A stretch of DNA of 64,000 nt. It comes from Hormiphora californensis (lineage: Eukaryota; Animalia; Ctenophora). Shown here piece by piece: positions 7,471 to 57,766 of the stretch (positions are counted from its first letter, which is position 1; every line of letters starts with the position of its first letter). The translations under genes and the position numbers were made by a program. The stretch lies in assembly GCA_020137815.1 (NCBI GenBank), contig CM035354.1, forward strand, positions 7,006,001 to 7,070,000, in the 5' to 3' direction. Below the pieces are notes generated by a model. It had not been told where the DNA came from and made no database searches. It worked only from the letters and a program-made list of their open reading frames with translations.

Positions 7471-7624
7471 TTTCTATTCTGTTATTCTTTTGCAGTATTA
7501 GATTTCTGTCTTGCTGGGTTTTTTTATGTCCTTGTGATTCAATCTCCTGCATTTAATTTCAGTTTGCTATGGCAAACTATGTGAAAATTAACTTGTTAAA
7601 CCAAATTATTTTGTAGGAGAAAGA

Positions 7625-12769: not shown

Positions 12770-12882
12770 ATGCCCGATAACTTTCCTACACCGATTGAGC
12801 CGGCCAAGGTTTGCCAGGTCCTCTCTACCATTCTCTCCCGGCAAAAGGACAACTATGTTCGGTCCGAGGAAATGGGAAAACT
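12770..12882 (+). pseudogene. TADA3: Orphan copy of TADA3 coding exon 1, truncated just before its donor
   Basis: Nearly identical to 32441-32553 (MPDNFPTPIEPAKVCQVLSTILSRQKDNYVRSEEMGKL), then fused to antisense LINE sequence. Confidence 0.85.
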
Positions 12883-13580
12883 CATTGCTGTCTTTGATGC
12901 TCATATACCGTTTCACAGGGGTAGCTGGTGCAGGCTTCTTCTCTTGCTGACCAGAACTACACCCTACTTCACTCTCCTCTCGGTTCTTCTTCAATATCTC
13001 ATTAACTACTGGGGCCATGAGTCCAGGTAGGCTATCCATCAACTCTTGCTTCAGTTTTGAGAAACCATCCTTCAAATCATCACTCGAAATCGAGACTCCA
13101 GAATCAGACGATGGTGTAGGACACCGGGAACTGTCCGGAAGCATCCGGTAACACATAATTAACATCTGCCAAAGATCCTTCTTCGTAGGTCCACCTTGAG
13201 CATCCATAGGCTCACCTGGGGTACCAGCATCATCCTCCAATTTCTTCCACACTGTACTGCCTTTACATTTGTCAGAGAAGCTCGTGACAAGGAGCTTACC
13301 TTCGAAGTCTTTCTTCGTTCCACTTTCATACTGGGGTGCCAATCCCGACATTCTATATCCTGTAACAGTGGCGCGAGGATCCGATCCACCAAGATTTGGC
13401 TTCCTGGATTTGGCTCAACGAGGTCTCCCAAGATCTGCTCGACTTAGAAAGATACAGGAACACCAGGCTTGTCTTGTCTTGAGATAAGAGGGATTGAGCA
13501 GAAGTCTTAGAAGAGTAACGAGGAGCAGTTGAACGGAACCTCAAATTAATTTGTTTAAAATAGTGTTGAAAAGTTTGAAA
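12883..13580 (-). mobile_element. 5' fragment of a LINE (SL-like head, 5'UTR, ORF1 N-terminus from ATG 13351)
   Basis: Begins with the same head as the LINE at 52595. ORF1 segment GPTKKDLWQMLIMCYRML resembles GITKDILWNFAINLLRMV of that LINE. Absent from the upstream flanks of copies 2 and 5. Confidence 0.75.
13540..13580 (-). other. Putative spliced-leader exon sequence (41 nt, one mismatch)
   Basis: Minus strand TTTCAAACTTTTCAACACTATTTTAAACAAATTAATTTGAG; matches the ctenophore SL as recalled. Confidence 0.8.
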
Positions 13581-25938: not shown

Positions 25939-26051
25939 ATGCCCGATAACTTTCCTACACCGATTGAGCCGGCCAAAGTCTGCCAGGTCCTCTCTACCAT
26001 TCTCTCCCGACAAAAAGACAACTATGTTCGGTCCGAGGAAATGGGAAAACT
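25939..26051 (+). pseudogene. TADA3: Orphan TADA3 exon 1
   Basis: Copy of 32441-32553. Confidence 0.83.
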
Positions 26052-26732
26052 CATTGCTGTCTTTGATGCTCATATACCGTTTCACAGGGGTAGCTGGTGC
26101 AGGCTTCTTCTCTTGCTGACCAGAACTACACCCTACTTCACTCTCCTCTCGGTTCTTCTTCAATATCTCATTAACTACTGGGGCCATGAGTCCAGGTAGG
26201 CTATCCATCAACTCTTGCTTCAGTTTTGAGAAACCATCCTTCAAATCATCACTCGAAATCGAGACTCCAGAATCAGACGATGGTGTAGGACACCGGGAAC
26301 TGTCCGGAAGCATCCGGTAACACATAATTAACATCTGCCAAAGATCCTTCTTCGTAGGTCCACCTGGAGCATCCATAGGCTCACCTGGGGTACCAGCATC
26401 CTCCTCCAATTTCTTCCACACTGTACTGCCTTTACATTTGTCAGAGAAGCTCGTGACAAGTCTTTCTTCGTTCCACTTTCATACTGGGGTGCCAATCCCG
26501 ACATTCTATATCCTGTAACAGTGGCGCGAGGATCCGATCCACCAAGATTTGGCTTCCTGGATTTGGCTCAACGAGGTCTCCCAAGATCTGCTTGACTTAG
26601 AAAGAGACAGGAACACCAGGCTTGTCTTGTCTTGAGACAAGAGGGATTGAGCAGAAGTCTTAGAAGAGTAACGAGAGCAGTTGAACGGAACCTCAAATTA
26701 ATTTGTTTAAAGTAGTGTTGAAAAGTTTGAAA
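26052..26732 (-). mobile_element. 5' LINE fragment with putative SL head (26732-26692)
   Basis: Minus strand starts TTTCAAACTTTTCAACACTACTTTAAACAAATTAATTTGAG then GTTCCGTTC; paralogous to 12883-13580 with small deletions. Confidence 0.75.
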
Positions 26733-29188: not shown

Positions 29189-29301
29189 ATGCCCGATAAC
29201 TTTCCTACACCGATTGAGCCGGCCAAAGTCTGCCAGGTCCTCTCTACCATTCTCTCCCGACAAAAAGACAACTATGTTCGGTCCGAGGAAATGGGAAAAC
29301 T
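29189..29301 (+). pseudogene. TADA3: Orphan TADA3 exon 1
   Basis: Copy of 32441-32553. Confidence 0.83.
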
Positions 29302-29982
29302 CATTGCTGTCTTTGATGCTCATATACCGTTTCACAGGGGTAGCTGGTGCAGGCTTCTTCTCTTGCTGACCAGAACTACACCCTACTTCACTCTCCTCTT
29401 GGTTCTTCTTCAATATCTCATTAACTACTGGGGCCATGAGTCCAGGTAGGCTATCCATCAACTCTTGCTTCAGTTTTGAGAAACCATCCTTCAAATCATC
29501 ACTCGAAATCGAGACTCCAGAATCAGACGATGGTGTAGGACACCGGGAACTGTCCGGAAGCATCCGGTAACACATAATTAACATCTGCCAAAGATCCTTC
29601 TTCGTAGGTCCACCTGGAGCATCCATAGGCTCACCTGGGGTACCAGCATCCTCCTCCAATTTCTTCCACACTGTACTGCCTTTACATTTGTCAGAGAAGC
29701 TCGTGACAAGTCTTTCTTCGTTCCACTTTCATACTGGGGTGCCAATCCCGACATTCTATATCCTGTAACAGTGGCGCGAGGATCCGATCCACCAAGATTT
29801 GGCTTCCTGGATTTGGCTCAACGAGGTCTCCCAAGATCTGCTTGACTTAGAAAGAGACAGGAACACCAGGCTTGTCTTGTCTTGAGACAAGAGGGATTGA
29901 GCAGAAGTCTTAGAAGAGTAACGAGAGCAGTTGAACGGAACCTCAAATTAATTTGTTTAAAGTAGTGTTGAAAAGTTTGAAA
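29302..29982 (-). mobile_element. 5' LINE fragment with putative SL head (29982-29942)
   Basis: Duplicate of 26052-26732 offset by 3250 bp. Confidence 0.75.
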
Positions 29983-35521: not shown

Positions 35522-35867
35522 GGAACTGAACAAGCAGCTACAGGATAACTTACTATTGTGATTCACATTGTGTGAACTTTGTTAGACGTGAGTTGTGAGT
35601 TGTGACTTCGGACTTGGGTCAATGGGGAGTTAACTTAACTTATTATAGCTATTCTATTGAAACTGAGAATGATTGAATATTGTTTGTGCATTTTCAGTTT
35701 CTTCACTTAACCGATCTGTTTATTCATTATTGTAACCAAGACAACCAAGATTCTCTGATCTGTCACCTTTTCCAATGAGTAACCCACTTTGTTTAAACAC
35801 AACCAAATACACAGATATTTTTTGGGTTTCAGAACTAGATCATAGAATACAACATTCAACAGGAGAT

Positions 35868-38278
35868 CTAGGCAAGGTATCGCCTCATGGCGGTCAGGAA
35901 GGGGTTCTTTCCCTCTCCGCAGTTGCCCTTGAAGTCATCCATGGTGACATCCCAGACCATACCTCCACCAAGACCCTTCTCTTTGACGTAGTTCATCTTG
36001 AACTTGACAGCCTCGATATCATCATATCCAACCCACTGGTTGCCCTTGTAGGCGTAGGGTCCAACGACACAGTCGGGAGTCTTGACCTTGGTCCATCCCT
36101 TCTTCAGGTTCAGGCAGATCTGGAGGGGAGATGGGGTGTTGAAATATTAGGGAGGGGAGATGTGGTGTTATGAGGAGGGGGGAGATGGGGTGTTTTGAGG
36201 ATGGGGGAGATGGGTTTTAATCTGGGGAATGGGGTGGTAAACCGATGGCGAAATGAGTAATTGTTGTGGTATTTATTTAGGGAGAATGCTAGAATACGTC
36301 CTTTGCCTTATTCTCGGAATCGTTGGCAGTTCGAGAAGTAAGACCGACCCGTTTCTAAGAATATTGGGGCTAGGCAGGATTGTAAAAACACGAACGCAAT
36401 GAATAAGGGGCGGATATGTCAAAGAAAGAGATCAGGAGGGAAATGGGTGAAAAAACACGAACAGAACGTCCATGACCAAGACCAAACCGAGGGGAGAGAT
36501 ATCTCTCACTTCTCAGCTTTCTAACTAAATCCTAAAACATCCTGAATGGACAATATACCCAGGGTGACCCATAAATTATTAGGCCGGGGGATGAGCCGTA
36601 GCTCCGAAAAGGTATTAGTTGAACATACCTCGTAGTAACCGAGGAATCCCTTGGCTCGGGTCCACTTTCCAGCAATACCTCCATCCCTGGCGGGGGCTCC
36701 AATTCCGTTGTTCTTGGGATCATTCAGGGTGAAAGATCGGCCGTAGATGGGCAGACCGAGCATGATCTTCCTAGCGGGGAATCCAGACTTGATCCAGTAG
36801 TTGACAGCAGAGTCGGTGTTGAAGAAGTCAATGGCATCTCCCTCACAGTAGAACATGGGGGCGTTGTGGCCGGTCTGTTTCTCCCAAGATCCGTGGAAAT
36901 CGTAGGTCATCAAGTTGAGGATGTCGAGAGATCGTCCAATTCGGGGGACATCATATCCAGCATCAATGATGGTCTTGGAGGCGGAGACAGCAGCAGAGAG
37001 CATCAGTCCCTTGGGCTTGAAGGCAGCCTTGAGCTCAGCACACCAGTCAGCGAAGGCCTTCTTCTCTCCCTGTTTGCCCCTCTTGCAGTTACCCTGCCAG
37101 CACATGGGGTACTCCCAGTCCAGATCTAGACCGTCGAACTTGTACTTCTCCAGGAAGGGCACGACGTGCTTGATGAAGGCAGTCCTCTTGCTCTTGTTCA
37201 TGACCATGTCGGAGTACTTGGATCCGGCGGAGTCGTTCCATCCTCCGATGGCCAGGAAGACCTTCCTGACTCGGGATCCGGGAGCGTTCTTCAGAGCAAC
37301 GGTCCTCTCGTAGAAGGCTGAAGGGGGTAAATACATTGTTATCATGTTTAAGCAATATATTAGGATTTAGTTTTGTCTTTCTGGCGGTAGCTCAAACCCC
37401 ATGTTGAATATATCGCGATCGGACCGTTGTCCTTTTCAACCCCCACCCACCACATCTCAAAGATATAAGATGCCTCCCACAGCTAATTTGCCCCACAGTC
37501 CCTAACTATAACTTACTGTTGTCCTTATCAGCCCAGCTATCGTGCATCCTGAGGATTCCATTGGTTCCCAGAACAGAGAAGGCGTAGTTGACAATGGTAC
37601 AGAGTTTGGGGTCAATATCCTCGGGAACGTACTTGCCATCACCGGGTCGGTACCAGGCCCAGTTGATGAAGTAACAGACGACATCCTTCTCCGTCTCTGC
37701 GAGGGGGGGGGGGGTCACATAATGAGGGGTGATGGTATTATTTTGTTTGGTAATGATGACATCTAAGTTCAAATTTATGTGGGTATTGAGAAGATATCTT
37801 ACCGGGCCAAGGCTCGGTGGGGCCGGGAGGAGTGGTGGGCTTGGGAGGGTCAGTAGGGGGAGGAGCAGTGGTGGGAGCAGGGGGGTCGGTGGGTCCCTCT
37901 TTACAGTTGGCATTGGCGGGCCAGTCACAGTTCTGGGCATCAGCGTTGAAGTGAAGTCCGGGGGCACAACTCTTGTGCCAGAATCGCCCTCCTGCGGAAT
38001 CATATTGGGATGAGGTTAGAGGTTTGGGGATGATCAACATTCTTCGGGGTTACTGGTTAGGAGAACCCTCCTGGAATCATATTTAAAGGAGTCTCCATTA
38101 GGAGTCCTGGTTTATAGTCACTCTAGGTAACACTAAACACAATTTTAATTTATCCTCACTTACCGGCACAGTGGTAGTATTTCTCACAGTTGGCGGGGTC
38201 CCTGAACATACCATCCCCAGGACAGGTGAAGGCAGCGATGGCCCCGAGGAGCGCACTAATCACAAGAATCAACTTCAT
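35868..38278 (-). CDS. Secreted chitinase: signal peptide, N-terminal CBM14, Pro/Thr linker, GH18 domain; 5 coding exons
   Basis: MKLILVISALLGAIAAFTCPGDGMFRDPANCEKYYHC...CAPGLHFNADAQNCDWP; VCYFINWAWYR; AIGGW; catalytic FDGLDLDWEYP; MTYDFHGSW; QWVGYDD; GMVWDVTMDDF. Confidence 0.93.
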
Positions 38279-38601
38279 AATTTCAGAACTTGCTGGTCTA
38301 GTCCGCCACTGAGCCTGTCTTTTAAAGTAACCACACCAGGTGTCAAGGAGATGATTTTGTTTAACTTGGACAATGGGAGAACTTCAATTTGATTAATTTA
38401 CTCCTTCACAAAGCGTTTAAATTGGTGTAAAATGGATTAGTAAAGTGCGTAGAGGGGAGACAGTGCAGTGGAGTTGTGACATTTGACGTTCAATAAAATC
38501 CGAGTATTTTAAATTTCCTAACATTAAAAAGATTCACATTTACATTCAAGAAAAAAACAATATTTCAAACCACAATATCACTATTTTATCTCTCGCTAAC
38601 T

Positions 38602-40785
38602 CTACATCGGTACTTGATCATACTCAATATCACTACCCTCCTCTTCCTCCTCACCTCCCTTCTCTGCTAACTCCTTCCTCTTTTCCATCTTTCTCTCCTC
38701 TGTCTCATCTAGCTCTCCTCCCTCTTCACCTCCCTCTCCATTAGCGGCCTCCTCCTCAGCCCTCTTCCTTGCCTCTTCCTCCTCCTTCAACCTCCTCTCC
38801 TCCTCTATCTCCTCCCAAGTCTTCTTCCTGACAATAAACTTGAGATGGATATAGAAAGTCTTGTCATCATTTGCTATCTTCTCCAGCTCTGCTAACTCTT
38901 CCTCGGTCAGATCGGGGCCGAAGAAGATCTCTTTGTACTCCTGAAGCCTGGCCTCCAGTTTATCCGTCTTGAATACTATTCTGACTCCTGTTTCGTCCTC
39001 GATCTGCCCCAGAATACTCCTATCCTCACCCTCCTCCTCTTCTTCTTCACTACTAACCCACTCATCACCCCTTGCCAGAGTACGCCCCTTCTTTCTCAAC
39101 TTGTGCTCCGCCATCCACGCCTTCTTCTTTTCCTTCCTCACTTTCTCCCTCTCCTCCCTTCCCTTCTCCCTCTCCTCCCGCTCTGCTTTCTGTTCTTCAG
39201 TCAACTCTTCCTCTGGTATCTCATCTGCTGGCAACTCTCCAATTTCCCGCTCAGGCTCCTCTTCTGTCTCGGGGTCACTCGGCTCGTAGGGTGTATCGCA
39301 ACTTGAGACACTCAATGTACCAACACCTGTAAGATAAGGAAGTTAGTATTCAGGGAGAACGAGAGTGGGATCCCATTCCCCCGCCCAAGTGTGAATGAGA
39401 GATTTTGATGAACTAGGTTTTATTGGTCAGGAGTTAAGTTTGAAGTGTGACTATATCGAATGGAAGTGAATAATCTACCTTGTTCCCTTGCCTTCTCCCT
39501 TCTCAAACCCAATCTCTTCTCCTCCCTCAGCCTGTGCTCCTCTTCCTTCCGAATCCTCTCATTCTCAGCTCTAATCCTGTACTTCTCCTCCAACCGGATC
39601 TCTCGCTTCTTGTTGAGTTTTTGAGATCGCGTTATCGACTGAAAGAGACGAGTTCGATTAGGAACTATTCTGAGATTATTGAAGGAGGGAACTCACTTGC
39701 ACTAGACAAAAACTTCGTTACAATTAAACAATTATGAATGGTTTTGTTTTTTTGGTATCAAATCGCATGTTGTGAGTTGACACCACAACCTTTGCTACCT
39801 TTATGATCCGTTTCAGTCGTTTCTTCTTTGCTGTCGGTCTTTCCGGCATCACAGGTGTCTCCAGGCCCGTCTAAGAGAGGAGCAATATTCATTAGTTGCT
39901 ATGGTTACAGTTGGTAACGAAATTACGTCACGAGCGACCTTGCCGCACTGGGAAGGGAGGGGTAACTTCGTTACCAAGCCCTACAGTTACTATGGTAATT
40001 GGTACCAATTACTGCAGTTGCTATGGCTACAGTTCACATACCAAATCAGGCTGTATCTCCTGCTCATCGGGATCATCTGATTCTGGTTTCTCGTTTTGTG
40101 GAGTTGTATGGATAAAGTCAAGGCGGAACTGAATCTCCAACACATTTTCATCATTAATCACTACAATTAACTTCTTCGTCCTCTCTTCTTTAGTGCCCTT
40201 ATCTGAAATAATGGTTAATACATTTAATTGTATATCAATTAATAAGCTGAATAATTAACTAACTTAATTAAATAATTAGTTAACTTACTGTTAAGGTACA
40301 TATCCTTGATGTCTTTTAGCATTAGCCTCGTCTTGATAACCATCTGCTTCCAGTCATCATCATCCTCTATCGTATCAACACCACAACCCCTCAACACATT
40401 CCTCATCCTGTCCTCCCAAGTAACCTCATCCTCCTCCTCTCCCTCCTCAATCTCCTGCACTTCTGCATCAGCCATCTCATCCGCCAGCTCCTGCTCTGTC
40501 TTCTCGCCCTGGTCTTCAGGTGCTGCTGAGCCTTCTTCTTCAGGAGTTGGAGGTGGCGTCACTTTTCTAGCGAACATACTGAATCTCGGCTTGCTGTCAC
40601 CTTCATCTTTAGGTTTCGATTTGAAGAGACCAAATCCGCTGCTCTTCTTTGGTTTTTGTTCCTCCTCTTCTTGTTCTTCGACTACTTCCTCCGGGGAAGG
40701 GACTTCAGGCGAGTCTTCTTTAGCAGGCATCTCCTCTTTCTTATCCTCCTTCCGCAAGAACCAACTTTCACCCATTATTCACTGT
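38602..40785 (-). CDS. Multi-exon Glu/Lys-rich low-complexity protein of unknown family (5' end uncertain)
   Basis: Long open acidic exons 38602-39326 and about 40268-40785, with small GT-AG-bounded exons near 39478-39639, 39780-39870 and 40040-40203. Confidence 0.6.
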
Positions 40786-41615
40786 AAAATTGTCAGCCAG
40801 AACGCATATTAAAACGACAGGATAACGACAGGTCGGAAAAGTAGGTCAGGCCACTACGCTCACACACTCGAATTACATACCGAATCTCTTTGAGTCAGCC
40901 AATCGTAGTTCCGTAAATGTAAAAAGTAGCACCAGCCAGCACATACTATATACGTACCATATAGTATTGTAGTTGGTAGTGGTGCATGATACATGATATT
41001 TTCCAAGCTCGGTTTTGGGTTTTATAATTGACGTCAATAACATGATAAACCACTGATATAAGACTTAGTTAAGACTTTAGAATTAAATTAAATTAAAAAG
41101 AATTAAATTCGCCTGCTAATATATGCAATAGTGTGCATCATGTGTAAACCACCGAGTCTCATTCTTCGAGCATATCATGATATATCACACAGAATGAGCA
41201 TCGAAAAGAACACAATTCCTATAAATCAGATTCAGTTCTCCATACTCCATATTTTACAACTTTCGTGTGATGAGTTTACTGAAGAATGAAGATTCAATTG
41301 TCTGCCCCATTTCTATCTCTCTCCCGCCCCCTGCTCATCCAACTTCTCATTCCTATATTCTGGGTATTCACCCATTCTGCAGTAGTTACCCCCTCCTTCC
41401 TAGTAGCTGGTATAATAATGTTAACTATTCCAGTTCCAGTGCTGCATATGATTCCACGCAACAGCAGCTGTTTCCGACTACCCTCGGAATTCCAAGAAAT
41501 AGAAAGACGTGATATTTGGAAAAGCTGTCGAACATTGCAAAATAAACAAAGATGAAAATCACATACCATGCGCAATATAATATACCAAAACTCGATAAAC
41601 CATATATCGACCAGC

Positions 41616-42272
41616 TCAACTCACTAACACCAATGCGCTTCTAGATAATTTTACAGTCAGTTCTCGGAAGCGCTTCAATAATCCTGGGTTAAATAGTGTA
41701 AAGATCTCGTAAAATAGTTCGTCGACCCCTTCATGGAAAAGTGCTGAGGTCTCCCAATACAAATCCGCCCTGACTGACTGAGCAAACTCTCTCCCCTCCA
41801 GGGGGCTCACCATTGACTTTTGTGAGTCGAACAGCTCGAATAACAGGTCCTGGTTGAATCTCAGGTCTGCTTTGGTTCCCACTACAACCAACTTGGGCCT
41901 TAGAACTGATCTAGTGGAGCATGGGCAGCACAGACAATCTTCTGAGTGTAATTCTACATAGTTCAATACGTTCAGGGCAGTCGTCATCGATCCTCTATCT
42001 GATACATCATAACACAAGATAATGAGATCAACAGATGGCATGAGAGAGGGTCCAACCTCCAGAATCCGACTCACAGGCCCTCCGTCAATGATGTTTAGTG
42101 TTTGTGTTCTCTTCCCCCGGGATATAGTCCGTTCAACGTGGAGCTCGGTTGGTAGGGCAGTGTTGAGGAATACTCCCCGGTCGTAGGAGAACAATAAGGA
42201 TGATTTACCTGATCCGGGGCCACCTAGAACCAGGATGTTAACTGTGTCAACTGATGTAGGCGTCCAAGACAT
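41616..42272 (-). CDS. Atypical Rho-like small GTPase, intronless
   Basis: G1 GGPGSGKSS, G4 TKAD followed by a Rho-insert-like helix, G5 ETSA; G3 degenerate (IIDGGP); no CAAX. Confidence 0.8.
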   Translation of the reverse strand: MSWTPTSVDTVNILVLGGPGSGKSSLLFSYDRGVFLNTALPTELHVERTISRGKRTQTLNIIDGGPVSRILEVGPSLMPSVDLIILCYDVSDRGSMTTALNVLNYVELHSEDCLCCPCSTRSVLRPKLVVVGTKADLRFNQDLLFELFDSQKSMVSPLEGREFAQSVRADLYWETSALFHEGVDELFYEIFTLFNPGLLKRFRELTVKLSRSALVLVS

Positions 42273-43559
42273 AATGTAGTTAAATGTGCTAGGGAGGGAG
42301 GGTGTTAGGGAAAGAGGGTGTTAAAATAGGGAATAGGGAAGGAGGGTGTTACAAAGCAACCAGTGATGACGGACTAAAATAAGGAAGGAGGAGGGTTAAA
42401 ATAGGGAAGGAGGGTGTTAAAGTAGGGAAGGAGTTGGTAATGAAATTACCCCTCCGAGAAAGCAATACTAGGGGTGACTTCGTAACCAAGGGAAGGAGGG
42501 TGTTACTGGTTACAGAGCAACCAGTGATGACGGACTAAAATAAGGAAGGAGGAGCTAGTGAGTATTGGTTGTTATATGAGGGACGAGCAAAGTGCAAAGT
42601 GTGTGCTAAAATAGGGAAGAGGGCCCAAGTTAGATAAACATGTATACTAACTACCACCAGCAGCAAGAGAGAGACGCGTGTCACACAGCATTAGTGTAAA
42701 TACATTGTTTTTACAGGGATTAACAATGGGGGGGGGGGGGGTTAAAATAGTAAGAACCGGCGTTTCCTTGCCCGAACCTGTCTCACCAAACCCCGAAAAA
42801 TAAAAAGGGTTAGAACAAAACAGAGCTGGCCGTGAAAGGAATGAGGGGGAATGGTAGCAAGGAGAAATATTAATAACTGAAATATTAAAAACTGAAACTA
42901 ACTAATCAGTTATGCTGAATGCTCGACTAATTGAAGTAGAACCACAGGAGCCGCTCAGAGAAGAAACTACTCCGAGGACAGCAAATCCAGTACTGGGTAT
43001 ATTCCCCCGGCTCCCTGGATCGCTCCCTTTGGGATCTACCTGGGAAGCATACCATTTCTAGGACTTTCCTGGATGCGGCGAAAGACAGGGGATTCCGAGA
43101 AAACCTGGAAGAGGGAGAGAGGGGGAGGTATTGAATACAGGGAGAGAGAGAGGAAGGTAGTTGAGTTAATAAAGGAAAACCGACAGAGAGAGAGAGAGAG
43201 AGAGATAGGTAGAGGTAGAGGTAGGGAAGTAGAGGGGGCTGTAGTAAATAAACATTTAAATCACATACGCTTTTTTCCTCGAATTGTCACATTGCCCCGG
43301 GCTCTACCATTATTCTTGTTAATAGGGAGAAAAGTAAACAATCGTTTGTTAATGTTAGGCGATTGAAATAACTAGCACAGGGTCATCGGAAATTATAAAT
43401 ATAGACATATATTTACCAGATTAATCAAATCAGAATAAACACCTGCTGTAGCTGTAATTTTAGGTGTACTACCCTTTTACTCTCTTTCCTCCCCTCTTTT
43501 CTCTCTTTCGCTATCACTTTTTTTTCTCTCTCTCTCCCTCTCTTTTCTCTCTTTCGCTA

Positions 43560-44463
43560 CATTTTATGCTTCATACTCACACCTACCCAAAATGTATTTC
43601 CGAAAACCCAAGCGTCTCTCTCGCACTGTGCAGCAGTTGTATCTAAATTGCTAAATCTATCATCAAATGTGGTATAAAAAACATCAAAAAAGTCACTCCA
43701 GCTCTTTCTTTTCTCTATTTCATCAATCGGCTGTTTTAAGACAACTAATAACGTCTGTAACGATGGTAGCACACCCACTCATCTGCATTAGAAGCAACAA
43801 GAAATCCTCTCTGATCATGACACCCTGATACCGGTTCAGATCTCTCACATGTACAGCCACCTCAACCTCGTGCCCTGCTAGAAATGTCTTGCACACGTGC
43901 ACTAAATCGTCCTTTTTCCGTACACGTTTCATTGCCACTGCAGGTTCGTGGCCAAGTGTCCAAAAGGCGTACACATTGTGCACTGCAATACAATTCCTAA
44001 CCCACTCCATCGCAAGACGGTACATATTGTCCACTTGGTAGAGAACTGAGAACCTCAGAATGGTAATAATATTCCTATCAGACAGGATGACACCTCCACC
44101 ATACAACAACAGTAGACACTCCTCCGCTAGACACTCCTGGCCTCGGGGACACTTCAAATCGTCCAGGTTTATTATCCCAACACCACGGGAGAGCTGGTAC
44201 TCAAAGAAGGGGGAATGGTAGGCGAGGATTGCCCCCGAACAGGATATTTTGACATCATTCACCTGGATATCCACGTGATTACTAAAACCCCTGATACCTA
44301 GCAACCGAGATACATTGACCCTTTCAACAGTACCTTGGACGGGTCGGGTAGGCTGGGAAGAGACACTGGATGATGATGTTGCTAGTGTCAGACTTGATGT
44401 CTTTACACCCGTTACTTTGGACACCATAGTAGGTCTAGGATCCTCTAGGACCTTCACAGTCAC
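43560..44463 (-). CDS. BTB/POZ domain coding region (second BTB), frameshifted at the 3' end
   Basis: FSNHVDIQVNDVKISCSGAILAYHSPFFE...LLYGG; paralogous to the BTB at 46076-46849. Confidence 0.75.
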
Positions 44464-45810
44464 CTTGCCGGGTGAGGAAGATCTCTCTGGTGACCGAGTT
44501 TTAGGAGGTGATTGATGACACTTTGATCGGTGTACGTTGTTTGGGATCTAGGGACCTGGTGATGATTGTAGTTTTCATCATGGCGGGTGGCCTCTCTGAA
44601 GCTTTCTTCGTCTCAGTCGGTTGTTTCGCTGACCCGAGTTGTTAGTCGTGGTTGTGTTTCACCAGCCGGACTCGTCGTTCCTGCCTCTGTAGATACTGGT
44701 GGCGGGGTCTCTGAGTTGGGTAGATCAGGAGATTTTATTGGAGAAGTTTGTCCAAACCTCCGCACTTTTCGAGATGCAAATGGATCAGGTTTAGAACCAG
44801 TCACTGGGTGTCTTACTACTACTGGTAGTACTTGGGGGTCCTATTTACCTGATCTAGTGGAACCAGCAGATCGTTGCCTTGGCCTTTCCTCGGACGCTTT
44901 TCGAAGACGGAGAACTGGGAGCAGCGATGGTAGGTTTAGTGACCGGTTCTTCCAGTTTTGTAGGCTTCTCTGGAGTTTCAGTAATCGGTTTTGTTAAAAC
45001 TGATTGAGCCGGCTTACCGGTAGTTTTTTCAGACGTTAGACTGTTTGCCCCACCTGAAGCAAGTTGTTTTTGAACGACTGGAGGCTGTTTTTCACCGGCT
45101 GAAGGCTGTTTTTCGAGGACTGGAGGTTGTTTTTCACCGACTGGAGGCTGTTTTTCACCGACTGAAGGCTGTTTTTCACCGGCTGAAGGCTGTTTGACAT
45201 CGGCTGAAGGCTGTTTTTCGAGGACTGGAGGCTGTTTTTCACTGACTGATGGCGATTTTATACTTGCTGAAGGTTGTTTTTCACCAGTTTGGGATTTGTC
45301 ACCGGTTGGACGTTGTTTTTCACCGGCTTGAGGACGTTTTTCACCGGTTGAAGGCTGTTGGCCACCGTTGGAAGGTTCGTCTTCATTTTTCGGCCTGTTG
45401 CTCTCTGTCGTTCTCGGTCTATTATCTCCAGACCTTCTCGAACCCCCGGAACGACCCCTATCCGAAGTGTTCCTCTCTCTGTTTATCTGGGACGGACTCC
45501 TCCCAGTATCACCGAGACCTGGTTTGGAACCTCCATTTTGTACTGCTCTTCCCTCATTGTTAGCTGTTGATATACTGACAGAACTTTTTGTCCTTTCAGG
45601 GGAATTGTTAGGGACTTTTTCTAGATCTCTTGACCTCCTGGCAGCATCTCGCCTCTCATCTCGCCTCTCATCTGCTGACCTCTCCCTTGGACGGTTGTCT
45701 GTTTCCCTAGAAGGCTTGCTGGTAGGACGGGAGGATGCTGAGGGTGATTTGGTGTCACCCCCACCTCCAGGTGGGTCGTCATTTGGCATCTCGCATCCTA
45801 CATAAGGGAC
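44464..45810 (-). CDS. Long Ser/Pro/Arg-rich linker exon with a 21-bp coding minisatellite (EKQPxxx), probably joining the two BTB domains; frameshifts present
   Basis: ORFs 44854-45789 and 44613-44804; acceptor CTCTCTAG near 45811; about 14 heptapeptide repeats at 45060-45365. Confidence 0.55.
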
Positions 45811-46075
45811 CTAGAGAGGGGAGGGAGTAAAGATTACGGGAGGAAGATTGAAATGACAGTAAATAAATCGTAATTTTAAACAAAATATAATTTTCACCCC
45901 TTCACAATTGGACTGAGGACATAAACACATTACACATAAACAAAAACAGTTTGTAAAATGTCTCTCCGAAAGTTTCCTCATTTGTTATCTAGATCTGGGA
46001 AATTTCTAAAGTTGGTTGCCATAACAACATGTCTCTCGAATAGTTTCCTCATTTGCTATCTAAGCTAGGTCTGGA

Positions 46076-46849
46076 TCACATCTTCAACACACTCATTTGA
46101 ATGTCGATGAGTTGTTTTAGTCGGAATGGGTCCTCCATGCTCTTGTTCATTGACCCAATCAAATTGTTAAAGAGTTCCTTGTACTGCGCAAAGAGGTTCT
46201 CGTAATTAATGAACTCGCTAAGGTCAAGGATAAAGTTGGTATTACTGCTGCCCTCCCCACAGAACGCGATCAAGAAGCTGATATACCCGGGACAATTAGT
46301 TAGCTGTAACATGGCCTTCACGAAGTCCCTCACAACCCCCTTTTTGTCATCCTGCAACCTCGTTATCAGCTCTTGAGCGATGTCCTCCTCGTTCTTTTTC
46401 ATGAACTCCAAGCAGAAGGCCATGAGGTCTCCCTTCCGACTCTTCACCTCCGGCAGATTCGCTATATCGAATATTTTACAAATGTGGGAGGAGGTGGTGT
46501 TTTCCTTTATCCAATCAAATGCCAGGTCCCACATGAACTTAATCTCGTAGATTAGGGAAAACCGGACCAGAGAGGCAATGTTACTAATGGTGATGAGCAC
46601 TTTACCACCGTATAGCAGGGTCAGACACTCCTCAATAGCCAGTTCCGATCCTTGAAAGAAGAAATCCTCGAGGAGGACAAAAGTCGCACCACCCATGAAC
46701 AACTTCTCAAAGACTGGACTCTGTTGAGCGACAATCACTCCGGAACACACAAACTTGGTCTCGTTGACGATGATCTCCACCGTGTTGGAGAACTCCTTCC
46801 GGTTGAGAAACCGAGACACATTGACCGTCTCGGGCAGGGTAGATGCCAT
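46076..46849 (-). CDS. BTB/POZ domain protein exon (first BTB)
   Basis: EFSNTVEIIVNETKFVCSGVIVAQQSPVFEKLF...LLYGGKV...FSLIYEI, followed by BACK-like helices. Confidence 0.8.
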   Translation of the reverse strand: MASTLPETVNVSRFLNRKEFSNTVEIIVNETKFVCSGVIVAQQSPVFEKLFMGGATFVLLEDFFFQGSELAIEECLTLLYGGKVLITISNIASLVRFSLIYEIKFMWDLAFDWIKENTTSSHICKIFDIANLPEVKSRKGDLMAFCLEFMKKNEEDIAQELITRLQDDKKGVVRDFVKAMLQLTNCPGYISFLIAFCGEGSSNTNFILDLSEFINYENLFAQYKELFNNLIGSMNKSMEDPFRLKQLIDIQMSVLKM

Positions 46850-47085
46850 GGTGATCTGGGAGCGCAGAAGCTAACTGAAACATGAAGGGGCAGGGTTTAG
46901 TAGTTATAACCATGGCTGGTGATCAATATATTTCTATAAATAACCATGGCCCAATATATATCACACGAGCTAAGGAGGGTGGGATACAACGTGATGCAGC
47001 TCGAAATGGCATGTGAGCGTGTGTATTGTTGCTGCTAATCAAAAGGAGGAAGTCTTACTAAAACTTGCTTGAGGTTACCATACAT

Positions 47086-50937: not shown

Positions 50938-52494
50938 TCACGAGCATTCCAAGATACAGGAAAATCTCCAATACCTTTTCTGTTTCAGAACTGATTTAAA
51001 GTACTGAGAGATACTATTCACAGCTCGCTCAACTCCAGCAAAATAAAGGAAAAACAATCCAATTAAGAATATGATTATAGAGGAACCAATAGCATTTACA
51101 CGTTTGGTTTGTGGCGAATTTTCTTCGAAAATTTCCTCGAAAAAATTAAACACACTTAATAATAATAATAATAATAATATTCATACTTATATCCTGCCCA
51201 TATTCTACAGGGACAGCAGAGCTTTACAGATGCTGCCACTGGAGGAAACTCAGAGCAGTTAACTAACTCTTAACCCAAATATAGAGACTCAAACAAAAAA
51301 ACGGTGGAAAAAATCCAAATTATCCGGCTCACATAAGTGGAAAACAGATTAGGCTCATAACAGACCAAAATAGAAAAAACTCGAAAAAAAAGGCCACAGG
51401 ATAAATGTCACCACTGTCACTTCATGATTCATCACTCCAAATATAGACACAGATCAAATGTTCAGACAACAGATTCTGAACAACTGGATAACTGAAAATC
51501 GGAATAAAATTACACACTCGTGCTTCACTCATGCTGCAAACCCATCGAATAAAGATCAGTTAAAAACTTGTCACGAGGTAAGATACAGACCTAAGTACAA
51601 TACTTACGCTAGACAGTACAGCGTGATGGGAGGAGTAGGTACCGAGAAAAGATGTAGGCTGGAAAAAGGAAAAACAACCGGAACTAGCCTGATCCAAAGG
51701 CATCCACAAACAATCTTGTCTTTAACCCCGTTTTGAAAGATTCCACAGCAGGCCGAGATCGCAACTCAAGGGGGAGTGCATTCCACAGATCTGGCAGGAG
51801 AACAGATGGTCTCCTTTTCCTCAGTTTAGAATTTGCATTAATGCTCGACAGCTTCGGGTACTGGAGCTTATAAGGGTCTGGAACAGCAGTCGATCTGGTA
51901 CGGCAAGTAACATCAACGATATCTGTAGGTATTTGCTCAATGAGGTAATCTGGAGCACTTCCATGTACAATCTTATAGGCCATGAGACAGGCCTAGAAAG
52001 ACAATAATTATAGAGATGCTAAGCCATATGGCTCCAACAAAAACAAAATCTTCAAAGACTTTGTAATTGTTATCGATCAAAATAATCCAAACTAAAACCA
52101 TCAGCACATAACTCATCGTTGTTAAGCAAGAAGTCACATTCCTACAGTTTCCCAGTCCTGCGGATAAACTTCCTTCCCTCGTTTCAGGGAACCTCCAGCA
52201 AAGTATGGACAGCACCAGTCTTAGAATTATGGCGAAGAGAAAACTGACTGGATGTTTCATCTCCACTAAGTTACTTTCACCTTTAATTAACTCATCAGCA
52301 TAAACTGGAGACCAAGGTAGGCTTATACACAGATTGATGACGTGTAGAACAAGGCAGAATATATAAATCTTATATTTTCCATCTCTCCATGCCCTCCTCA
52401 CTGCAGGACATCCAAAAAGGATAGCTTTGCCGGCACCAAACAGCATTTTGACCGCAGCTTTCAAGATGACACGCACCATTACCCAATTAACCAT
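50938..52494 (-). pseudogene. Intronless multi-TM protein gene interrupted by a truncated LINE
   Basis: Hydrophobic ORF 52494-51984 stops at the LINE boundary. A hydrophobic frame (LSVFNFFEE...IIIFLIGLFFLYF) resumes right after the LINE tail at about 51157. Confidence 0.6.
51158..51983 (-). mobile_element. 5'-truncated L2/CR1-group LINE with (ATT)n tail
   Basis: ORF2 C-terminus AYKIVHGSAPDYL...LWNALPLELR...FKTGLKTRLF, about 500-nt 3'UTR and an ATT microsatellite tail. Confidence 0.88.
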
Positions 52495-52594: not shown

Positions 52595-52630
52595 AACTTT
52601 TCAACACTACTTTAAACAAATTAATTTGAG
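52595..52630 (+). other. Putative spliced-leader exon sequence (36 nt)
   Basis: AACTTTTCAACACTACTTTAAACAAATTAATTTGAG, identical to the 3' 36 nt of the minus-strand copies at 26692-26732 and 29942-29982. Confidence 0.8.
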
Positions 52631-52843
52631 GTTTCGTTTTTCCAATTCGCTAAGTTCTTTGGTATTTATTCGGCTCTTTATACTTTTTTGTTTTGTCTTT
52701 TCTGGGTTTATCAGAGACTGGTAACAGTTTCTGTGTGAGAAAGACAAGGCCTAAGACAAGAGAAGACCGGATCTTACCCGGAGGATTGACACTAGTTGTC
52801 GTTAGGCGAGGCCTTGAATTTATCCTGCAGATCGTAGCTAGTG

Positions 52844-54057
52844 ATGACATTGAAGGCAATCCCGCTGAAGTTATGGACGAGGAAAGAGTTGGACACGTTT
52901 ATGAAAGATAATCTACCTATGGATATGGACCCAATCTTGCAAGGTAAAAAAGCTCCCCCAGCGGGTATCACTAAAGATATTCTATGGAATTTTGCTATTA
53001 ACCTATTGAGAATGGTGGACAAGCAGCAGGATGACCTTGTGAAGACCAAGTCAGAAGAAGGAGCAGTAGTGGGACAGGATAAGTCTGAACAGGTTCTCAA
53101 GGAGCTTGAGGCTATGCGGGAGTGTTTTGCAAACATACCAGACATGATACAGAAGGCGATAAACGGCAAGGAGAAGACTGATGATACTGGAAAGTTGCTC
53201 AACCCCAGCCCTAAGAAGACACCACAGAAGCACACCCTCAAACTTGAGAAAGTTGGACTGGAAAAATGGAAAGTTGTAAAGGCGAAGGTACGAAAGACTC
53301 TGCAGTCAATCCCAGTTGATGGAACCAGCTCGAATGAAGAGGATACCAATCTAGTTTTCAAGGACAAGTCTCAACGAGACAAAGCTGAAGAACTGCTGAA
53401 ATCTGAATTTGATACTTCAACAGCCACTCTGACCACCAAGAAGCTCAATCCCAAAGTTACAATCTCAGACATTGCTGGAGAAATTACCACTGCCGAGGAA
53501 GTGTACAGTGAAATACTGAGGAAAAATGAGGAAATCAAAGAGCAGGTTGAAAGTCACCAAGAGGAACTGAAAGTCATCTTTCTTCACAAGGAGGATCGAT
53601 ATGCAGTTGTCCAGATGTCAAAAAAGATACGGGAGATTGTTCGCAAAAGGAATGACAGAATTAACCTTGATTTTCAAATCCACATTGTGAAGGATCGATT
53701 CCATATCGTTCAGTGTTTCAAGTGTCAACGCTATGGTCACAAGTCAGACTCAGTGATGTGCCCCAGGAGAGACAGCGGAGATCAGTTTGTACCTACTGTG
53801 CTGGAAATCATCGGTTCAAGGATTGTCAAGTGAAGAAGGATAGAAAAGTTGACTCCAGATGCTGTGCAAACTGCAAGAGTAGCCGAAGCAAGATCGATCA
53901 GCTCAATGCCACCACCCACACAGCGAACAGTTTCCAGTGTCCCTTCTTTATCATGGAGAAGGAGAGATTGATGAGTAGAACAGCCGGAGCTGAGATGTTA
54001 AAAAACGAGTACAGTCGGAAGGCACGAGACTTCTTGGAAAGAAGGAGAACTCACTAA
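52844..54057 (+). CDS. LINE ORF1 (gag-like zinc-knuckle protein), frameshift near 53780
   Basis: Coiled-coil region, then QCFKCQRYGH...C, CTYCAGNHRFKDC and CANC...H....C. Confidence 0.8.
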
Positions 54058-54068
54058 GAGTTGGAACA

Positions 54069-56833
54069 TTGAACTGCAACTCCCTTGTCAATAAGACTGC
54101 TGGTGTACTGGAACACCTTGAGGACCAGCTTGTTGACATTTGTCTTCTTCAAGAGACCTACCTGAGGAAAGGTGACAATGCTAAACATCATGAGATAAAG
54201 GAAAGAGGATGGGAAATCCACTCGGCACCGAGGAAGCAGAGGATTGGTGGTGGAGTAGCAATGGTATACAGAGCGGACCTGGGTGTTAAATCTGGACCTA
54301 CCAAGTGTTTCAAGACCTTTGAGTGTACAGAGACTACTATTGGAAATGCTAGTGAGATGTACCGGCTAGTAAACATCTATAGGCCACCGTACTCGAAGAA
54401 GGCACCTCATACCCAGAGCCACTTCCTGGATGAATTCAAGGGATACCTTGAGGAACTAAACTGTAAAGTCGGGACACCATTAATCATGGGAGACTTCAAC
54501 TTTCACATGGAAAGGCCTGATGAATTTTATCCAAAAAAGCTACAGGAGATGATCGAGGAGTTTGACTTCAAACAGATGGTTCCCTTGATATCAACACACA
54601 GACATGGAGGTACTCTAGACCTAGCCCTGATGGATGCTACTGTAGCAGACTGTCTTGAACCAGTTAGGATCTTGGAGGAGGGAACTACTTCAGACCACCA
54701 TCTTGTAACAGTGGACCTACAACTGACTGCGAGGATTAGTAAGAGGAAACGGCCGGAGACAATTTGGTATCGGGACTTCTCGAAGGTGGATGTGGAGAGT
54801 TTTAATGAGGATCTAAAAGCCAGTGGACTGTTTACCTCACCTGCTGATGAAGAGGATGTTGATAGCCTTGTTGAGAAGTTATATGGAACGTTGCTAGTCC
54901 TGGTTGATAAGCACTGTCCAATGAAGAAGAGAAGGAAGAAAGAGAAGTATACACCATGGATGGAAGAAGAGCTGCTAACCCTCCGGAGGAAGAAGCGGCG
55001 TGCTGAGAGAAAGTGGAGAAAGGACAAGACTAAAGAGAAGCCGCAGCTAAGGGCCATGTATGTGGAACTAAGGTCAGCTTTCAACAAGATGGAGGTCAGA
55101 AAACGGTCAGAATACACCAGAAGAAATATTGAACTCTGTGGACGCGATCAAAAGAGGCTCAACCAACAACTGAGCAAGCTACTGGGTAACTCCAATGTTA
55201 TCCTCCCAGATATGGTCAACCCGGAGAAACTAGCAACTGAGTTTGGAGAGTTTTTCAAGTCCAAGATTGATAAACTACAGAAGAAGATTGGTGACAAGAT
55301 TGAAGAGTTGGGTGAAAAGAAATCAACGGAGTCCGGTGCGAGTCAGGACTGAAAGAGGCTATTGTGAGGCCCACGATCAAGAATACTTCTGGAGATGTGG
55401 ACTCTCTTGCGAACTACAGACCAGTCTCGAATCTCAGTGTTCTGTCCAAGCTAGCGGAGAAAGCTGTTAATGTACAGCTAAATGAACATTTGGAGAAAAA
55501 CGACCTGCGAGGTGAATGCCAATCTGGTTTTCGCCCCAACCACAGTTGTGAGACACATATGGTGCGAGTCGTTGATGATGTCCTTGGGGAAATGGACAGA
55601 GGAAATGTTGTGGCAGTCGTTCAAATTGATCTTTCGGCTGCATTTGATACCATTGACCACCCTCAGCTTTTGAAGAGACTGGAGAAGCGGTTTGGAATTG
55701 GATCAACGGTACTCGAATGGTTCACTAGCTATCTCAATGACAGGAGCTATAAAGTTAAAATTGGAGATGCCCTCTCACCTAGGCTCTTTCTCAAATATGG
55801 AGTACCCCAAGGCTCTCTCCTTGGTCCTGTCCTCTTTGCCCTGTATGTGGAACCTCTAGAACCTATTGTAAAGAAGTATGGACTCACAATACGACTTTAT
55901 GCAGACGATAGCACAATATACATCGGATTCTGCCCTGTGGAAGGCTGGACAGGTTCAAAGGAGACTATTGAGAAATATTTGGAGGAGGTAAGAACGTGGA
56001 TGATTGAAAACAGACTGATGGTTAATGAGGATAAAACTGAGTTTCTTATCCTGGGGAAGAAGAAGAAGATGGATATTGTACGTGAGGAGAGTGACCTGAC
56101 TCTTGAGCTAAATGGGAACATCATTTCCCCCATGGACATGGCTGGAAAATCGGGAAAGACCCTTGGTGTCTATCTTGATGAACAAATGGATATGAAACGT
56201 CAAATCTCCATGGTCAAGAGGAATGCTGGAGTTACTATGAGGAACCTCTGGCAGATCCGCCGATTCATTGATAAACCTCTACGTCTGATGCTTGCCTCCC
56301 AGCTGGTCATATCCAAAGTGGACTATTGCAATGCCCTGTATTTCAACCTACCGGCCTCTACCATCAAGCCGCTGAAAGGACTAATGAATCAAGTAATAAG
56401 ATACATCCATGGAGTCAGAGAGAGGAAAGTTGATCTGGACCCCTTCTACCGTGATTCCCATATCCTTACGATTGAGAAGAGGATATTTTTCAAAATCTGT
56501 TTACTAGGGTACAAGATCTATTATGGAAGTGCCCCTCAGTACCTTCAGGATCTAGTGGAACATGATGAAAATACTGCAGTGCAGAAGTCTACTCGTCAGA
56601 GCTGTAAAGTAGACCATTACAAGTTAAAGCTACTTTCTGGAAATGTGAAAGTGAGCAAACTGGGAAAAAGGAGAATATCCCAATATCTCCCCCATGTCTG
56701 GAACAACCTACCGGAGAACCTCAGAGACGCACCTTCAGAGGACTCCTTCCGTATTCGCCTGAAGACCTACCTGTTCGATGCTACTGTTACCTTCTCTGAA
56801 AGACCTTATTTGGTTTTCGACATCAGTCTTTGA
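54069..56833 (+). CDS. LINE ORF2 (APE endonuclease + reverse transcriptase), broken by a deletion/frameshift near 55345
   Basis: LNCNSL, LQET, GGGV, YRPP, GDFN, TLDL, SDH; NYRPVSNL, QSGFR, DLSAAFDTIDH, GVPQGSLLGP, YADD, LGV, SKVDYCN. Confidence 0.93.
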
Positions 56834-57766
56834 TAATTTCTTTTCGGTTATTCATTAGTCCCCGTTCTCACACGGTCACCCCTGCTGCTGTCACATAATT
56901 CTTTATAATCTAAGATACTATTCAGTTTATCATTTTTGTTATTATTTTTTCTGATTATACTTGTCACCCACAGTCACCAAGTGTTGAGAGTTAATAAAGT
57001 CTACTATATATGTCAGTTATAAGTCACCAGTATGAGTTACCATTTACGACCTTTTGTCAACCAATATGTCAAGATAGGATGAGAGAACCGCTATGAATGG
57101 CAATTGCTCTTCGAACCAATCGAGAGTACTTGTCTATTTAGTCGGTATATAAATCCATTTTGTTGTTGTTGTTGTTGTTGTCCTAAAAAGCATACGTGGC
57201 GAAATATGATTTGCTTGGTCGAATAGGGAGCATATTCTGCGTTATGATGATCTAATAGATCGGTGTATCCTAAATTTCTGGTTGCTATGAAAACTAAAAT
57301 AGGGTATTCATTGTTGAGTAAGGGGTATTCAACCTATTTCGAAGCAGAGAGAAAGAGGGGTAAAGATAGGAAACTACAGAGAGATAGAGATGAGATATAT
57401 TATGGAGAGGTTTGAGCCTTGTGATTGTATGACCTATGTGCTATGGAAGTCTTTCACAATGACAAATGAACAGACATGGTGAAGAGTGAGTGAATGAAAC
57501 CACTTGTAGGGCATACTCTAGGCGATTCTGCAAATAAACAGAAAAAAGGTATGCCAGCCTATGATAGATGTAGGTGGTTGTTTTTACTTGTGACGTGTTA
57601 CCTGTCGTGATCTGAATTTTCTTACCTTGTGACGTTACCACCGGGCTACTTTCGCCCAACTTTTGGAAGAAAATTGTGTTGAGAGTAGCTGGAAATTGAC
57701 AAATGAAGAATTCTCTCTCTCTCAGTATCAAAAGTACGTATCTCTCTATCTGTCTATCTATCTCTT

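Follow-up and report, generated by a model that had tools for sequence, protein, structure and literature searches.

A broken ctenophore APE-type LINE with a spliced-leader head, probably gained by trans-splicing and reverse transcription and renewed through the final AG of the integrated leader

The window analysed here, a stretch of 64,000 nucleotides on contig CM035354.1 of Hormiphora californensis, contains four copies of the 25-nt core of a spliced leader (SL), against 0.00 expected from 100 shuffles. One of them forms the 5' end of a LINE retrotransposon at 52.6 kb (Table 1). This element opens with the SL 36-mer at 52595-52630, followed in the window sequence by GTTTCGTT. The initial annotation had described a UTR of about 210 nt, ORF1, ORF2 and a repeat tail, and measurement gave a 213-nt UTR and a (TTG)7 tail whose repeats span 57160-57180; short tandem repeats, here (ATT)n, also end the related LINEs of L043 and L065. 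The 5' UTR shows 97% identity to L086, and the first ATG is at 52844. Profile searches of ORF1 gave zf-CCHC matches under the Pfam cut-off (E 0.008-0.08), with the Cys/His motifs visible, and detected no RRM. ORF2 carries an APE domain (PF03372, E 2.8e-11) and a reverse transcriptase (RT) domain (PF00078, E 1e-30), PF14529 is also matched in LINEs of the SL-headed group, and there is an L2-like C-terminal motif. The copy is broken, by a frameshift in ORF1 and by a deletion at 55337-55343 in ORF2, where 67 residues are gone relative to P0078 (an intact relative, 95% identical) and the frame changes. No target-site duplication was found at its junctions, the longest common word being 7 nt and lying 37 nt left of the junction, and no joint across the element that would mark an empty site was found in four DNA runs. 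Since the adjoining TCAAA also matches the SL, the left boundary may lie a few bases further upstream. As had been proposed, the 52.6-kb LINE is of APE type and sits at a dispersed site, its flanks unrelated to the SL gene. The other three SL copies (13540-13580, 26692-26732 and 29942-29982, minus strand) represent one insertion of a second lineage, B, triplicated with a tandem array of VIT genes. The DNA upstream of these heads is unrelated to that upstream of the 52.6-kb LINE, in agreement with the earlier remark that the motif copies share nothing upstream.

Table 1. SL-headed LINE features in the window
Feature	Position	Strand	Basis or remark
SL exon, last 36 of 43 nt, 0 mismatches; 5' end of lineage-A LINE	52595..52630	+	match to published leader
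5' UTR, 213 nt	52631..52843	+	GTTYCR-type motif at start, common to lineages B-D; first AG ends 24 nt past SL
ORF1, putative C-terminal Cys/His knuckles, frameshift near 53782	52844..54057	+	frames 52844-53833 and 53671-54057
ORF2, N-terminal part, APE endonuclease	53994..55352	+	domain match; stops at internal deletion
ORF2, reverse transcriptase and C-terminal part	55343..56833	+	different frame past deletion
3' UTR	56834..57159	+	repeat-level depth stops near 57150
(TTG)7 tail	57160..57181	+	window sequence
Lineage-B LINE 5' fragment: 41 nt SL with 1 substitution, UTR, ORF1 start	12882..13580	-	76% to L065
Lineage-B head, tandem duplicate, 41 nt SL, 0 mismatches	26051..26732	-	sequence comparison
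Lineage-B head, tandem duplicate, 41 nt SL, 0 mismatches	29301..29982	-	sequence comparison

The motif is the ctenophore SL exon, as the initial annotation had proposed. This follows from three observations: all 36 nt of the window copy agree with the 3' part of the published H. californensis leader (36/36), the sequence lies at mRNA-like 5' ends, and an SL RNA gene carries it. In 110 of 111 transcript-like control contigs, which were drawn from environmental assemblies with the SL as search bait, it is found within 30 nt of the contig end, ahead of unrelated sequences. L067 and L019 were kept among these controls as likely assembly chimeras. L067 consists of 71 other bases, 24 nt of SL and then an EF-1-alpha-like frame, and it may also be conceived as a retrocopy. 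The SL RNA gene (L088/L089) has a GTAAG donor, a 778-bp tandem unit, stem-loops and a folding z of -4.1, and its upstream and intron letters were seen at loose ends in DNA run X2, from the best-matching organism. SL patterns gave no match in the viral contig and genome contig collections searched. According to a published account, the leader occurs 718 times in the genome of H. californensis and 491 times in that of M. leidyi, and the passage on the subject regards such copies as leader loci that draw mis-mapped reads (PMC8527503).

Nine independent dispersed SL sites could be compared, two in the window and the others in L028, L039, L043, L065, L072, L082 and L086. Seven of them head LINEs of this group, one precedes an ORF1-like frame and one an unclassified frame. 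The junction coincides with the end of the SL exon at all nine sites, with no intron. Retained SL lengths are 36, 41, 35, 43, 40, 42, 41, 42 and 42 nt (0-8 nt missing at the 5' side), so that the copies do start at variable positions within the leader, 35-43 nt of it being kept. The heads fall into four LINE lineages (A-D) at unrelated sites, with 47-66% identity between lineages in the RT half and weak or no alignment of the first 150 UTR bases (local scores 12-25 versus 123-271 within lineages). A clade uniting the four has a support of 0.68 in an RT tree of 123 rows that includes the window RT, leaves out P0110 because of the length filter and carries no labelled reference clades. A GTTYCR-type motif stands directly past the SL in all seven LINE heads and in none of the 111 control contigs; with this motif common to all LINE heads, the SL-UTR junction looks inherited from a common ancestor. 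The first AG past the SL ends 22-34 nt away in 7/7 LINE heads, and a distance of at least 20 nt is seen in 22 of the 111 controls. We count this spacing in favour of the renewal model set out below; T-rich composition and shared ancestry may account for the AG-free stretch.

How did the leader come to head these elements? One explanation is that a LINE inserted in an SL RNA gene, or took up the exon together with its donor by template jump, in the style of NeSL or CRE elements. The presence of GT behind the SL in lineages A and B is in line with it, as are matches to the SL intron of 18/22 in the lineage-A UTR and 14/15 in the lineage B of the window, scores reached by 8 and 18 of 1000 dinucleotide shuffles. 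However, 2 and 3 of the 111 controls match the intron as well, for which reason this likeness was set aside, and the matches are absent from L065, L028, L043 and L039. The 3' flank reaches a score of 26 against L088 at a place 176 nt beyond the donor, which looks like chance. The comparison of the sequence behind the SL with the SL RNA gene intron, proposed beforehand, revealed a difference: the SL gene continues with GTAAG and the LINEs with GTT, TGT or TTT. The alternative of a captured SL exon plus GT donor does not hold, because two of the four lineages, C and D (three loci), have TG or TT past the SL. Moreover, an SL gene was not rebuilt from the flanks at any of the seven sites compared, and an empty paralogous VIT site places the lineage-B boundary in host DNA. 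We regard insertion into the SL gene and capture with the donor as largely refuted. Trans-splicing is the likely origin that this difference leaves, and we consider it very likely that trans-splicing of LINE RNA created the SL junction and that target-primed reverse transcription ran to the cap or almost to it. The initial annotation had named three contrary findings in advance (a motif missing from mRNA 5' ends, full-length family members without it, and flanks that reconstruct an SL RNA gene), and none of them was made.

The leader is strikingly constant. Across all heads it shows no substitution except one in a duplicated copy. In lineages B and C, 12% and 17% of UTR sites are variable and no SL site is; at the UTR rate such invariance has P values of 0.005 and 0.0006, which overstate the case, because conservation is also high over the initial 30 nt of the UTR in both lineages (with a single substitution and a single indel in each) and the SL may be under selection. 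One rival explanation is a permanent head: a leader acquired by trans-splicing on one or a few occasions, with an internal promoter starting at or near its first base and selection keeping its identity with the host leader. The conserved motif directly behind the SL would then be a possible downstream promoter element, and the variable 5' truncation fits a permanent head equally well. In Ascaris the SL exon may itself be a promoter element, for which literature searches yielded no confirmation. For dinoflagellate retrocopies, a role of the SL as basal promoter has been suggested (PMC12014239), an idea repeated for Paulinella (PMC9311404). On the other hand, a permanent head requires four lineages with diverged UTRs and 47-66% RT identity each to hold 35-43 nt identical to the host SL. 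Host leaders seem to change over such spans, as suggested by the passage on the Mnemiopsis leader in PMC8527503, where an 8-nt end motif is the one part given as mostly conserved. In addition, none of the seven flanks resembles the upstream region of the SL gene (scores 16-20, null median 18). Taken together, we judge a permanent, promoter-bearing head to be rather unlikely, without dismissing it.

We favour instead a reading in which this broken APE-type LINE owes its head to trans-splicing and reverse transcription and is, in our estimation, probably renewed through the final AG of the integrated SL. According to this model, host read-through RNA would supply transcripts of a promoterless LINE, the host spliceosome would add the SL exon to the LINE RNA, and the SL-capped RNA would be reverse-transcribed by target priming, to the cap or almost so. 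The final AG of the integrated SL would then serve as the next trans-splice acceptor, and each round would restore a full, current SL and a cap, with no relic left. Renewal at any other AG would alter the UTR, and renewal therefore implies the final AG. It is more probable than otherwise, judging from the sequence, that RNA running through an integrated copy would be trans-spliced at this site. Three features favour such reuse: the exact SL, the lack of a stack of relics, and an SL-like predicted acceptor before intronless VIT genes. No relic SL was found in the first 200 nt behind the SL of 10 heads (best score 16; controls up to 18), nor a second SL upstream of the heads in seven flanks of 38-300 nt. 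As for the third feature, 2378 AT-rich sites out of 8601 AG sites were scored for likeness to the SL 3' end. Outside the SL copies, the top score fell to the predicted acceptor ahead of the intronless VIT gene at 7616, and 1 of 2000 shuffled SLs scored as well there; the match was spotted by eye prior to testing and both sequences are AT-rich. This predicted acceptor resembles an SL that was integrated long ago and whose end has become TAG.

What disfavours reuse of the final AG is the acceptor itself. The SL ends in GAG, and a G at position -3 of an acceptor is disfavoured. In the chitinase-like gene, four introns are backed by RNA joints from four RNA or RNA-like runs over 34800-47050, and every one of them has a C-rich tract followed by a terminal CAG; the acceptors predicted by eye before start codons all end in YAG (5/5). 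In the same four runs no SL junction was seen on window genes at 34800-47050, the uncovered parts being uninformative. That GAG is an unusual acceptor also speaks for the permanent head discussed above. Furthermore, no GAG acceptor is needed if source copies come equipped with a promoter, an outron and a normal acceptor of their own, if the SL-headed copies are their dead-end by-products, and if the lineage persists via unspliced RNA. Such a scheme accounts for an SL that is always current, about 30% of Hydra transposon Iso-Seq reads are SL-bearing (PMC12220107), and our SL-baited metagenome search could not recover SL-less copies. However, copies with a different upstream part are expected to break an assembly at the SL-UTR junction. 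In DNA run X7 one contig is unbroken from 52604, inside the SL, to 53072 at a depth of 609, which argues against a large class of copies with another 5' end there; this evidence comes from a single run, and since rare variants are lost from contigs, a rare SL-less source copy could escape. We therefore hold the by-product scheme to be improbable. Among the 111 SL-capped control contigs, tblastn with the LINE group found none that are LINEs of this group. The RNA-like run X22, which bears the species label of the best-matching organism, contains next to none of the LINE's words, and RNA runs X16, X18, X19 and X20, which share 0.05-0.19 with it, give no evidence of expression. That the LINE lacks a promoter and relies on host read-through for its RNA is a tentative part of the favoured model, to which we give slightly less than even credence.

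Several known systems bring an SL or a processed 5' end together with a mobile element. NeSL-1 and CRE/SLACS/CZAR have SL RNA genes as their insertion targets and encode restriction-like endonucleases. Like them, the ctenophore LINE is a non-LTR retrotransposon adjoining SL sequence; unlike them, it has an APE domain and occupies dispersed sites, and nothing of the SL gene but the exon is attached to it. R2 is freed from co-transcripts by an HDV-like ribozyme, and HDV-like ribozymes are likewise described for L1Tc/ingi elements. If our best reading holds, the ctenophore LINE resembles R2 and L1Tc/ingi in having its 5' end cut from a longer RNA, but the host spliceosome would do the cutting and the capping; Rfam gave no match at gathering score over the whole window. 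Slamovits and Keeling (2008) reportedly described SL-relic retrogenes of dinoflagellates with DinoSL/DinoRL recycling. In these, as here, a genomic SL heads a reverse-transcribed copy (PMC12014239). According to that account the retrocopies are trans-spliced inside the integrated SL, a precedent for the reuse that we propose for the ctenophore LINE, and the cargo is host mRNA with stacked 15-nt relics, whereas here it is an autonomous LINE with no relic (PMC12014239). In Schistosoma mansoni, six SL exons are merged with transposable elements, and the authors suggest trans-spliced, retro-transcribed elements (PMC5832876). Both cases have an SL exon fused to a mobile element in the genome; in the S. 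mansoni passage the elements are unclassified, assembly chimerism is left open, and neither a lineage-wide head nor a renewal cycle is proposed (PMC5832876). Transposon RNAs of Hydra also undergo host trans-splicing, as the Iso-Seq reads mentioned above illustrate, but this finding is at the RNA level, and an SL at genomic 5' ends does not appear in the passage concerned (PMC12220107). By its APE and RT domains, putative Cys/His knuckles and tandem-repeat tail, the element is like LINEs of the Jockey superfamily or CR1 group (L2 or CR1, type I ORF1; PMC4120745), from which its SL exon as 5' end sets it apart. Titles and abstract openings in the literature yielded no account of SL-headed LINEs in ctenophores; dispersed copies may already be described by Derelle et al. 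2010 (PMC2844618) or in the supplements of PMC8527503.

It is a long-standing question how LINEs preserve a 5' end with its promoter when reverse transcription truncates the copies. The known answers are internal promoters and ribozymes, to which host trans-splicing would add a third. Such renewal predicts a perfect SL on the RNA of a copy whose own SL is damaged. It also offers an explanation for the 718 and 491 leader copies of H. californensis and M. leidyi (PMC8527503); 7 of the 9 dispersed copies sampled are LINE heads. The most far-reaching version, which is conceivable though we lean against it, is that the whole ctenophore LINE radiation is promoterless, cut from read-through RNA at the final AG of the SL with a scarless 5' renewal in every generation, and that its heads account for the majority of the several hundred dispersed SL copies in ctenophore genomes. 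If this is true, new intronless host genes would obtain their acceptors from SLs integrated long ago.

The 36-mer that opens the broken LINE corresponds to the 3' part of the published H. californensis leader, which is reported on 56% of Iso-Seq reads and in 718 genomic copies (PMC8527503). The 25-nt core of this spliced leader (SL) occurs four times in the window and in none of 100 shuffles, and a search of Rfam with the SL exon copies of the window gave no match. Scanning metagenome contigs for a 22-nt SL core gave 121 loci, spread over 56 of the 64 collection parts. Ten were set aside (two SL genes, five LINE heads and three other frames) and the remaining 111, three of which were translated, served as controls. 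In 110 of these metagenome-derived controls the SL lies at most 30 nt from the contig end, ahead of unrelated sequences, i.e. at mRNA-like 5' ends. The median distance from SL to first ATG in the controls is 12 nt, and in 56 of them a C directly follows the SL, a position where cis acceptors usually have G. Two contigs (L088 and L089) are units of a tandem SL RNA gene (778-bp unit) in which a 43-nt exon is followed by a GTAAG donor and an intron structured by stem-loops (z -4.1). Loose ends in sequencing run X2 carry upstream and intron letters of the L088 type, and therefore the best-matching organism has such an SL gene. The host is accordingly a ctenophore that shares its SL with H. californensis. 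The initial annotation had recognized the 36-mer as the ctenophore SL, and the published leader, the contig ends and the gene itself all agree with this identity.

Features of the window discussed in the text
Feature	Position	Strand	Remarks
VIT-vWA (VWA5A-like) tandem array, about seven genes	7592-32193	+	long uninterrupted frames, several frameshifted
SL-like predicted acceptors before intronless VIT-vWA genes	7590-7616; AG at 10348, 13624, 18957, 22702, 26777, 30027	+	
Chitinase-like gene	35866-38281	-	four GT-AG introns with RNA joints; CAG acceptors, C-rich tracts
SL-derived 36-mer	52595-52630	+	directly followed by GTTTCGTT
5' UTR	ends before ORF1 start at 52844	+	213 nt
ORF1	from 52844		frameshift near 53782
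ORF2			APE and RT domains
(TTG)7 tail	57160-57180		

The layout first described for this element, from 36-mer through UTR, ORF1 and ORF2 to the tail, is found in the sequence. Judged by its anatomy, with that of APE-type LINEs of the Jockey superfamily as reference (PMC4120745), it belongs to this superfamily. The copy is broken, with a frameshift in ORF1 and a deletion in ORF2, which is 67 residues shorter than in P0078, an intact relative of 95% identity. Depth over the element is far above that of its right flank in four DNA runs; this agrees with a multi-copy family, depth not being equal to copy number. A lineage-B-like LINE 3' fragment lies about 600 bp to the left in opposite orientation (51163-52004, minus strand). 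Identity with NeSL or CRE-type elements, from which the element had been set apart at the outset, was ruled out: both tested defining features are absent and an APE domain is present.

Nine independent dispersed SL sites were compared, i.e. two in the window (the lineage-B insertion counted once) and the contig loci L028, L039, L043, L065, L072, L082 and L086. Seven of them head LINEs of one group, comprising lineages A (window, L086), B (window, L065), C (L028, L043) and D (L039). The elements at L043 and L065 are complete and have (ATT)n tails, with just 6 and 5 nt, respectively, of sequence before the SL; those at L086 and L028 are partial. In L043 ORF2 a Gly-rich unit of 13 residues is repeated in tandem about eight times between the APE and RT parts, the frame remaining open. 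RT-half identity between the four lineages is 47-66%. In a FastTree analysis of 123 RT stretches the clade common to all four contains 38 rows, with heads known for A-D members only; support is 1.0 for B+C+D and only 0.68 once A joins. The SL is 35-43 nt long over the nine sites, in line with the expected variable start, and the junction is at the exon end in all nine. In host DNA the lineage-B boundary is set by VIT paralogues without the insertion and leaves 41 nt of SL to the element. Just before the 36-mer, 20-24 contigs per run diverge into other sequence in four DNA runs, while the consensus continues the SL; just behind it, 14-21 contigs diverge in three of these runs. Such divergent ends agree with many dispersed genomic SL copies. 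The SL head is a real, lineage-wide feature.

Other SL-headed loci lie outside this LINE group. L072 carries a frame that we liken to ORF1, and its protein is related to that of the SL-capped contig L015, whose nearest Atlas clusters are large, unnamed and mostly ctenophore; the frame headed at L082 is without class. A YAG is found within 3-6 nt after the SL in all three, and three contigs of run X13 have a loose end matching them, which points to a multi-copy family. In L082 (1-622), which comes from an assembly rich in SL-capped transcripts, an integrated 42-nt SL is preceded by at least 280 nt; the contig could be DNA carry-over or RNA reading through this SL.

A joint that falls precisely on the end of the exon, with the intron absent, is the product of the spliceosome. 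Since the joints are of this type at all sites, the head very probably arose by trans-splicing of LINE RNA, as the initial annotation had proposed. Another origin would be capture of SL gene sequence, exon plus GT donor. Local UTR-intron matches exist in two LINE UTRs (18/22 and 14/15), but 2-3 of the 111 controls match the intron equally well. Moreover, the GTAAG that follows the SL in the gene is missing from all LINE heads, which continue with GTTTCG, GTTCCG, TGTTCC or TTTGCC, and none of seven upstream flanks resembles the upstream region of the SL gene, as insertion into such a gene would have left it. Capture thus appears extremely improbable, and the evidence for both the SL head and a junction made by the spliceosome is good.

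Once LINE RNA has been trans-spliced and reverse-transcribed, all that lay 5' of the acceptor would be gone, so a persisting lineage must renew its SL, keep a permanent start or use unspliced sources. No relic or second SL was found beside the heads, and renewal would thus need the final AG of the integrated SL. Such renewal, at least occasional, is on balance likely. The SL is constant between lineages whose UTRs align weakly at best, outside one short motif after the SL shared by 7/7 LINE heads and 0/111 controls. UTRs differ at 12% of sites in lineage B and 17% in lineage C, the SL at none. The first competing AG lies 22-34 nt downstream of the SL in all seven LINE heads, at least 20 nt in 22 of the 111 controls, and just 3-6 nt in L072, L082 and L015. 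Against renewal count the GAG terminal triplet of the SL, the CAG acceptors behind C-rich tracts of four introns supported by RNA joints, and the YAG ending of all five acceptors predicted by eye. In addition, no LINE of this group is among the 111 SL-capped controls. Conservation within lineages extends into the UTR over its first 30 nt, and selection could therefore account for part of the SL constancy. A permanent SL head seems unlikely. Maintenance by source copies without SL is quite improbable: one contig of run X7 links 27 nt of SL to UTR and ORF1 at a depth of 609, evidence against any large class of SL-less copies. The renewal cycle would be plausible. The stronger claim, that the element lacks a promoter and depends on host read-through, would fall slightly short of an even chance; no host gene was identified around 52.6 kb.

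The working principle would be that of dinoflagellate mRNA recycling as described in PMC12014239; unlike there, the ctenophore cargo is an autonomous LINE and the relic is absent. In S. mansoni, six cases of an SL exon fused to a mobile element are reported, assembly error being left possible (PMC5832876), and the SL is on about 30% of transposon reads in Hydra (PMC12220107). Judged by titles and abstract openings, we found no report of SL-headed ctenophore LINEs.

The predicted acceptors of the VIT genes are closer to the SL 3' end than nearly all other AG sites of the window. The one at 7616 ranks first among non-SL matches (2378 AT-rich AG sites scored); shuffled SLs equal its score in 1/2000 cases and that of the 10348 paralogue in 3/2000. 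Four other predicted acceptors score 4-11 versus 27.5-30.5 for the VIT sites. The second-best non-SL match is a 13-nt exact SL match followed by TAGAG (33632-33650, minus strand), with no obvious frame after it. Three VIT units bear the lineage-B LINE head, antisense, about 45 bp ahead of the predicted acceptor. The likeness was spotted by eye before scoring, and its weight in support of renewal is therefore suggestive only. A VIT acceptor may be a decayed integrated SL now ending in TAG, a change that would count both for and against renewal. If the VIT acceptors are decayed SLs, the VIT genes would be retrogenes.
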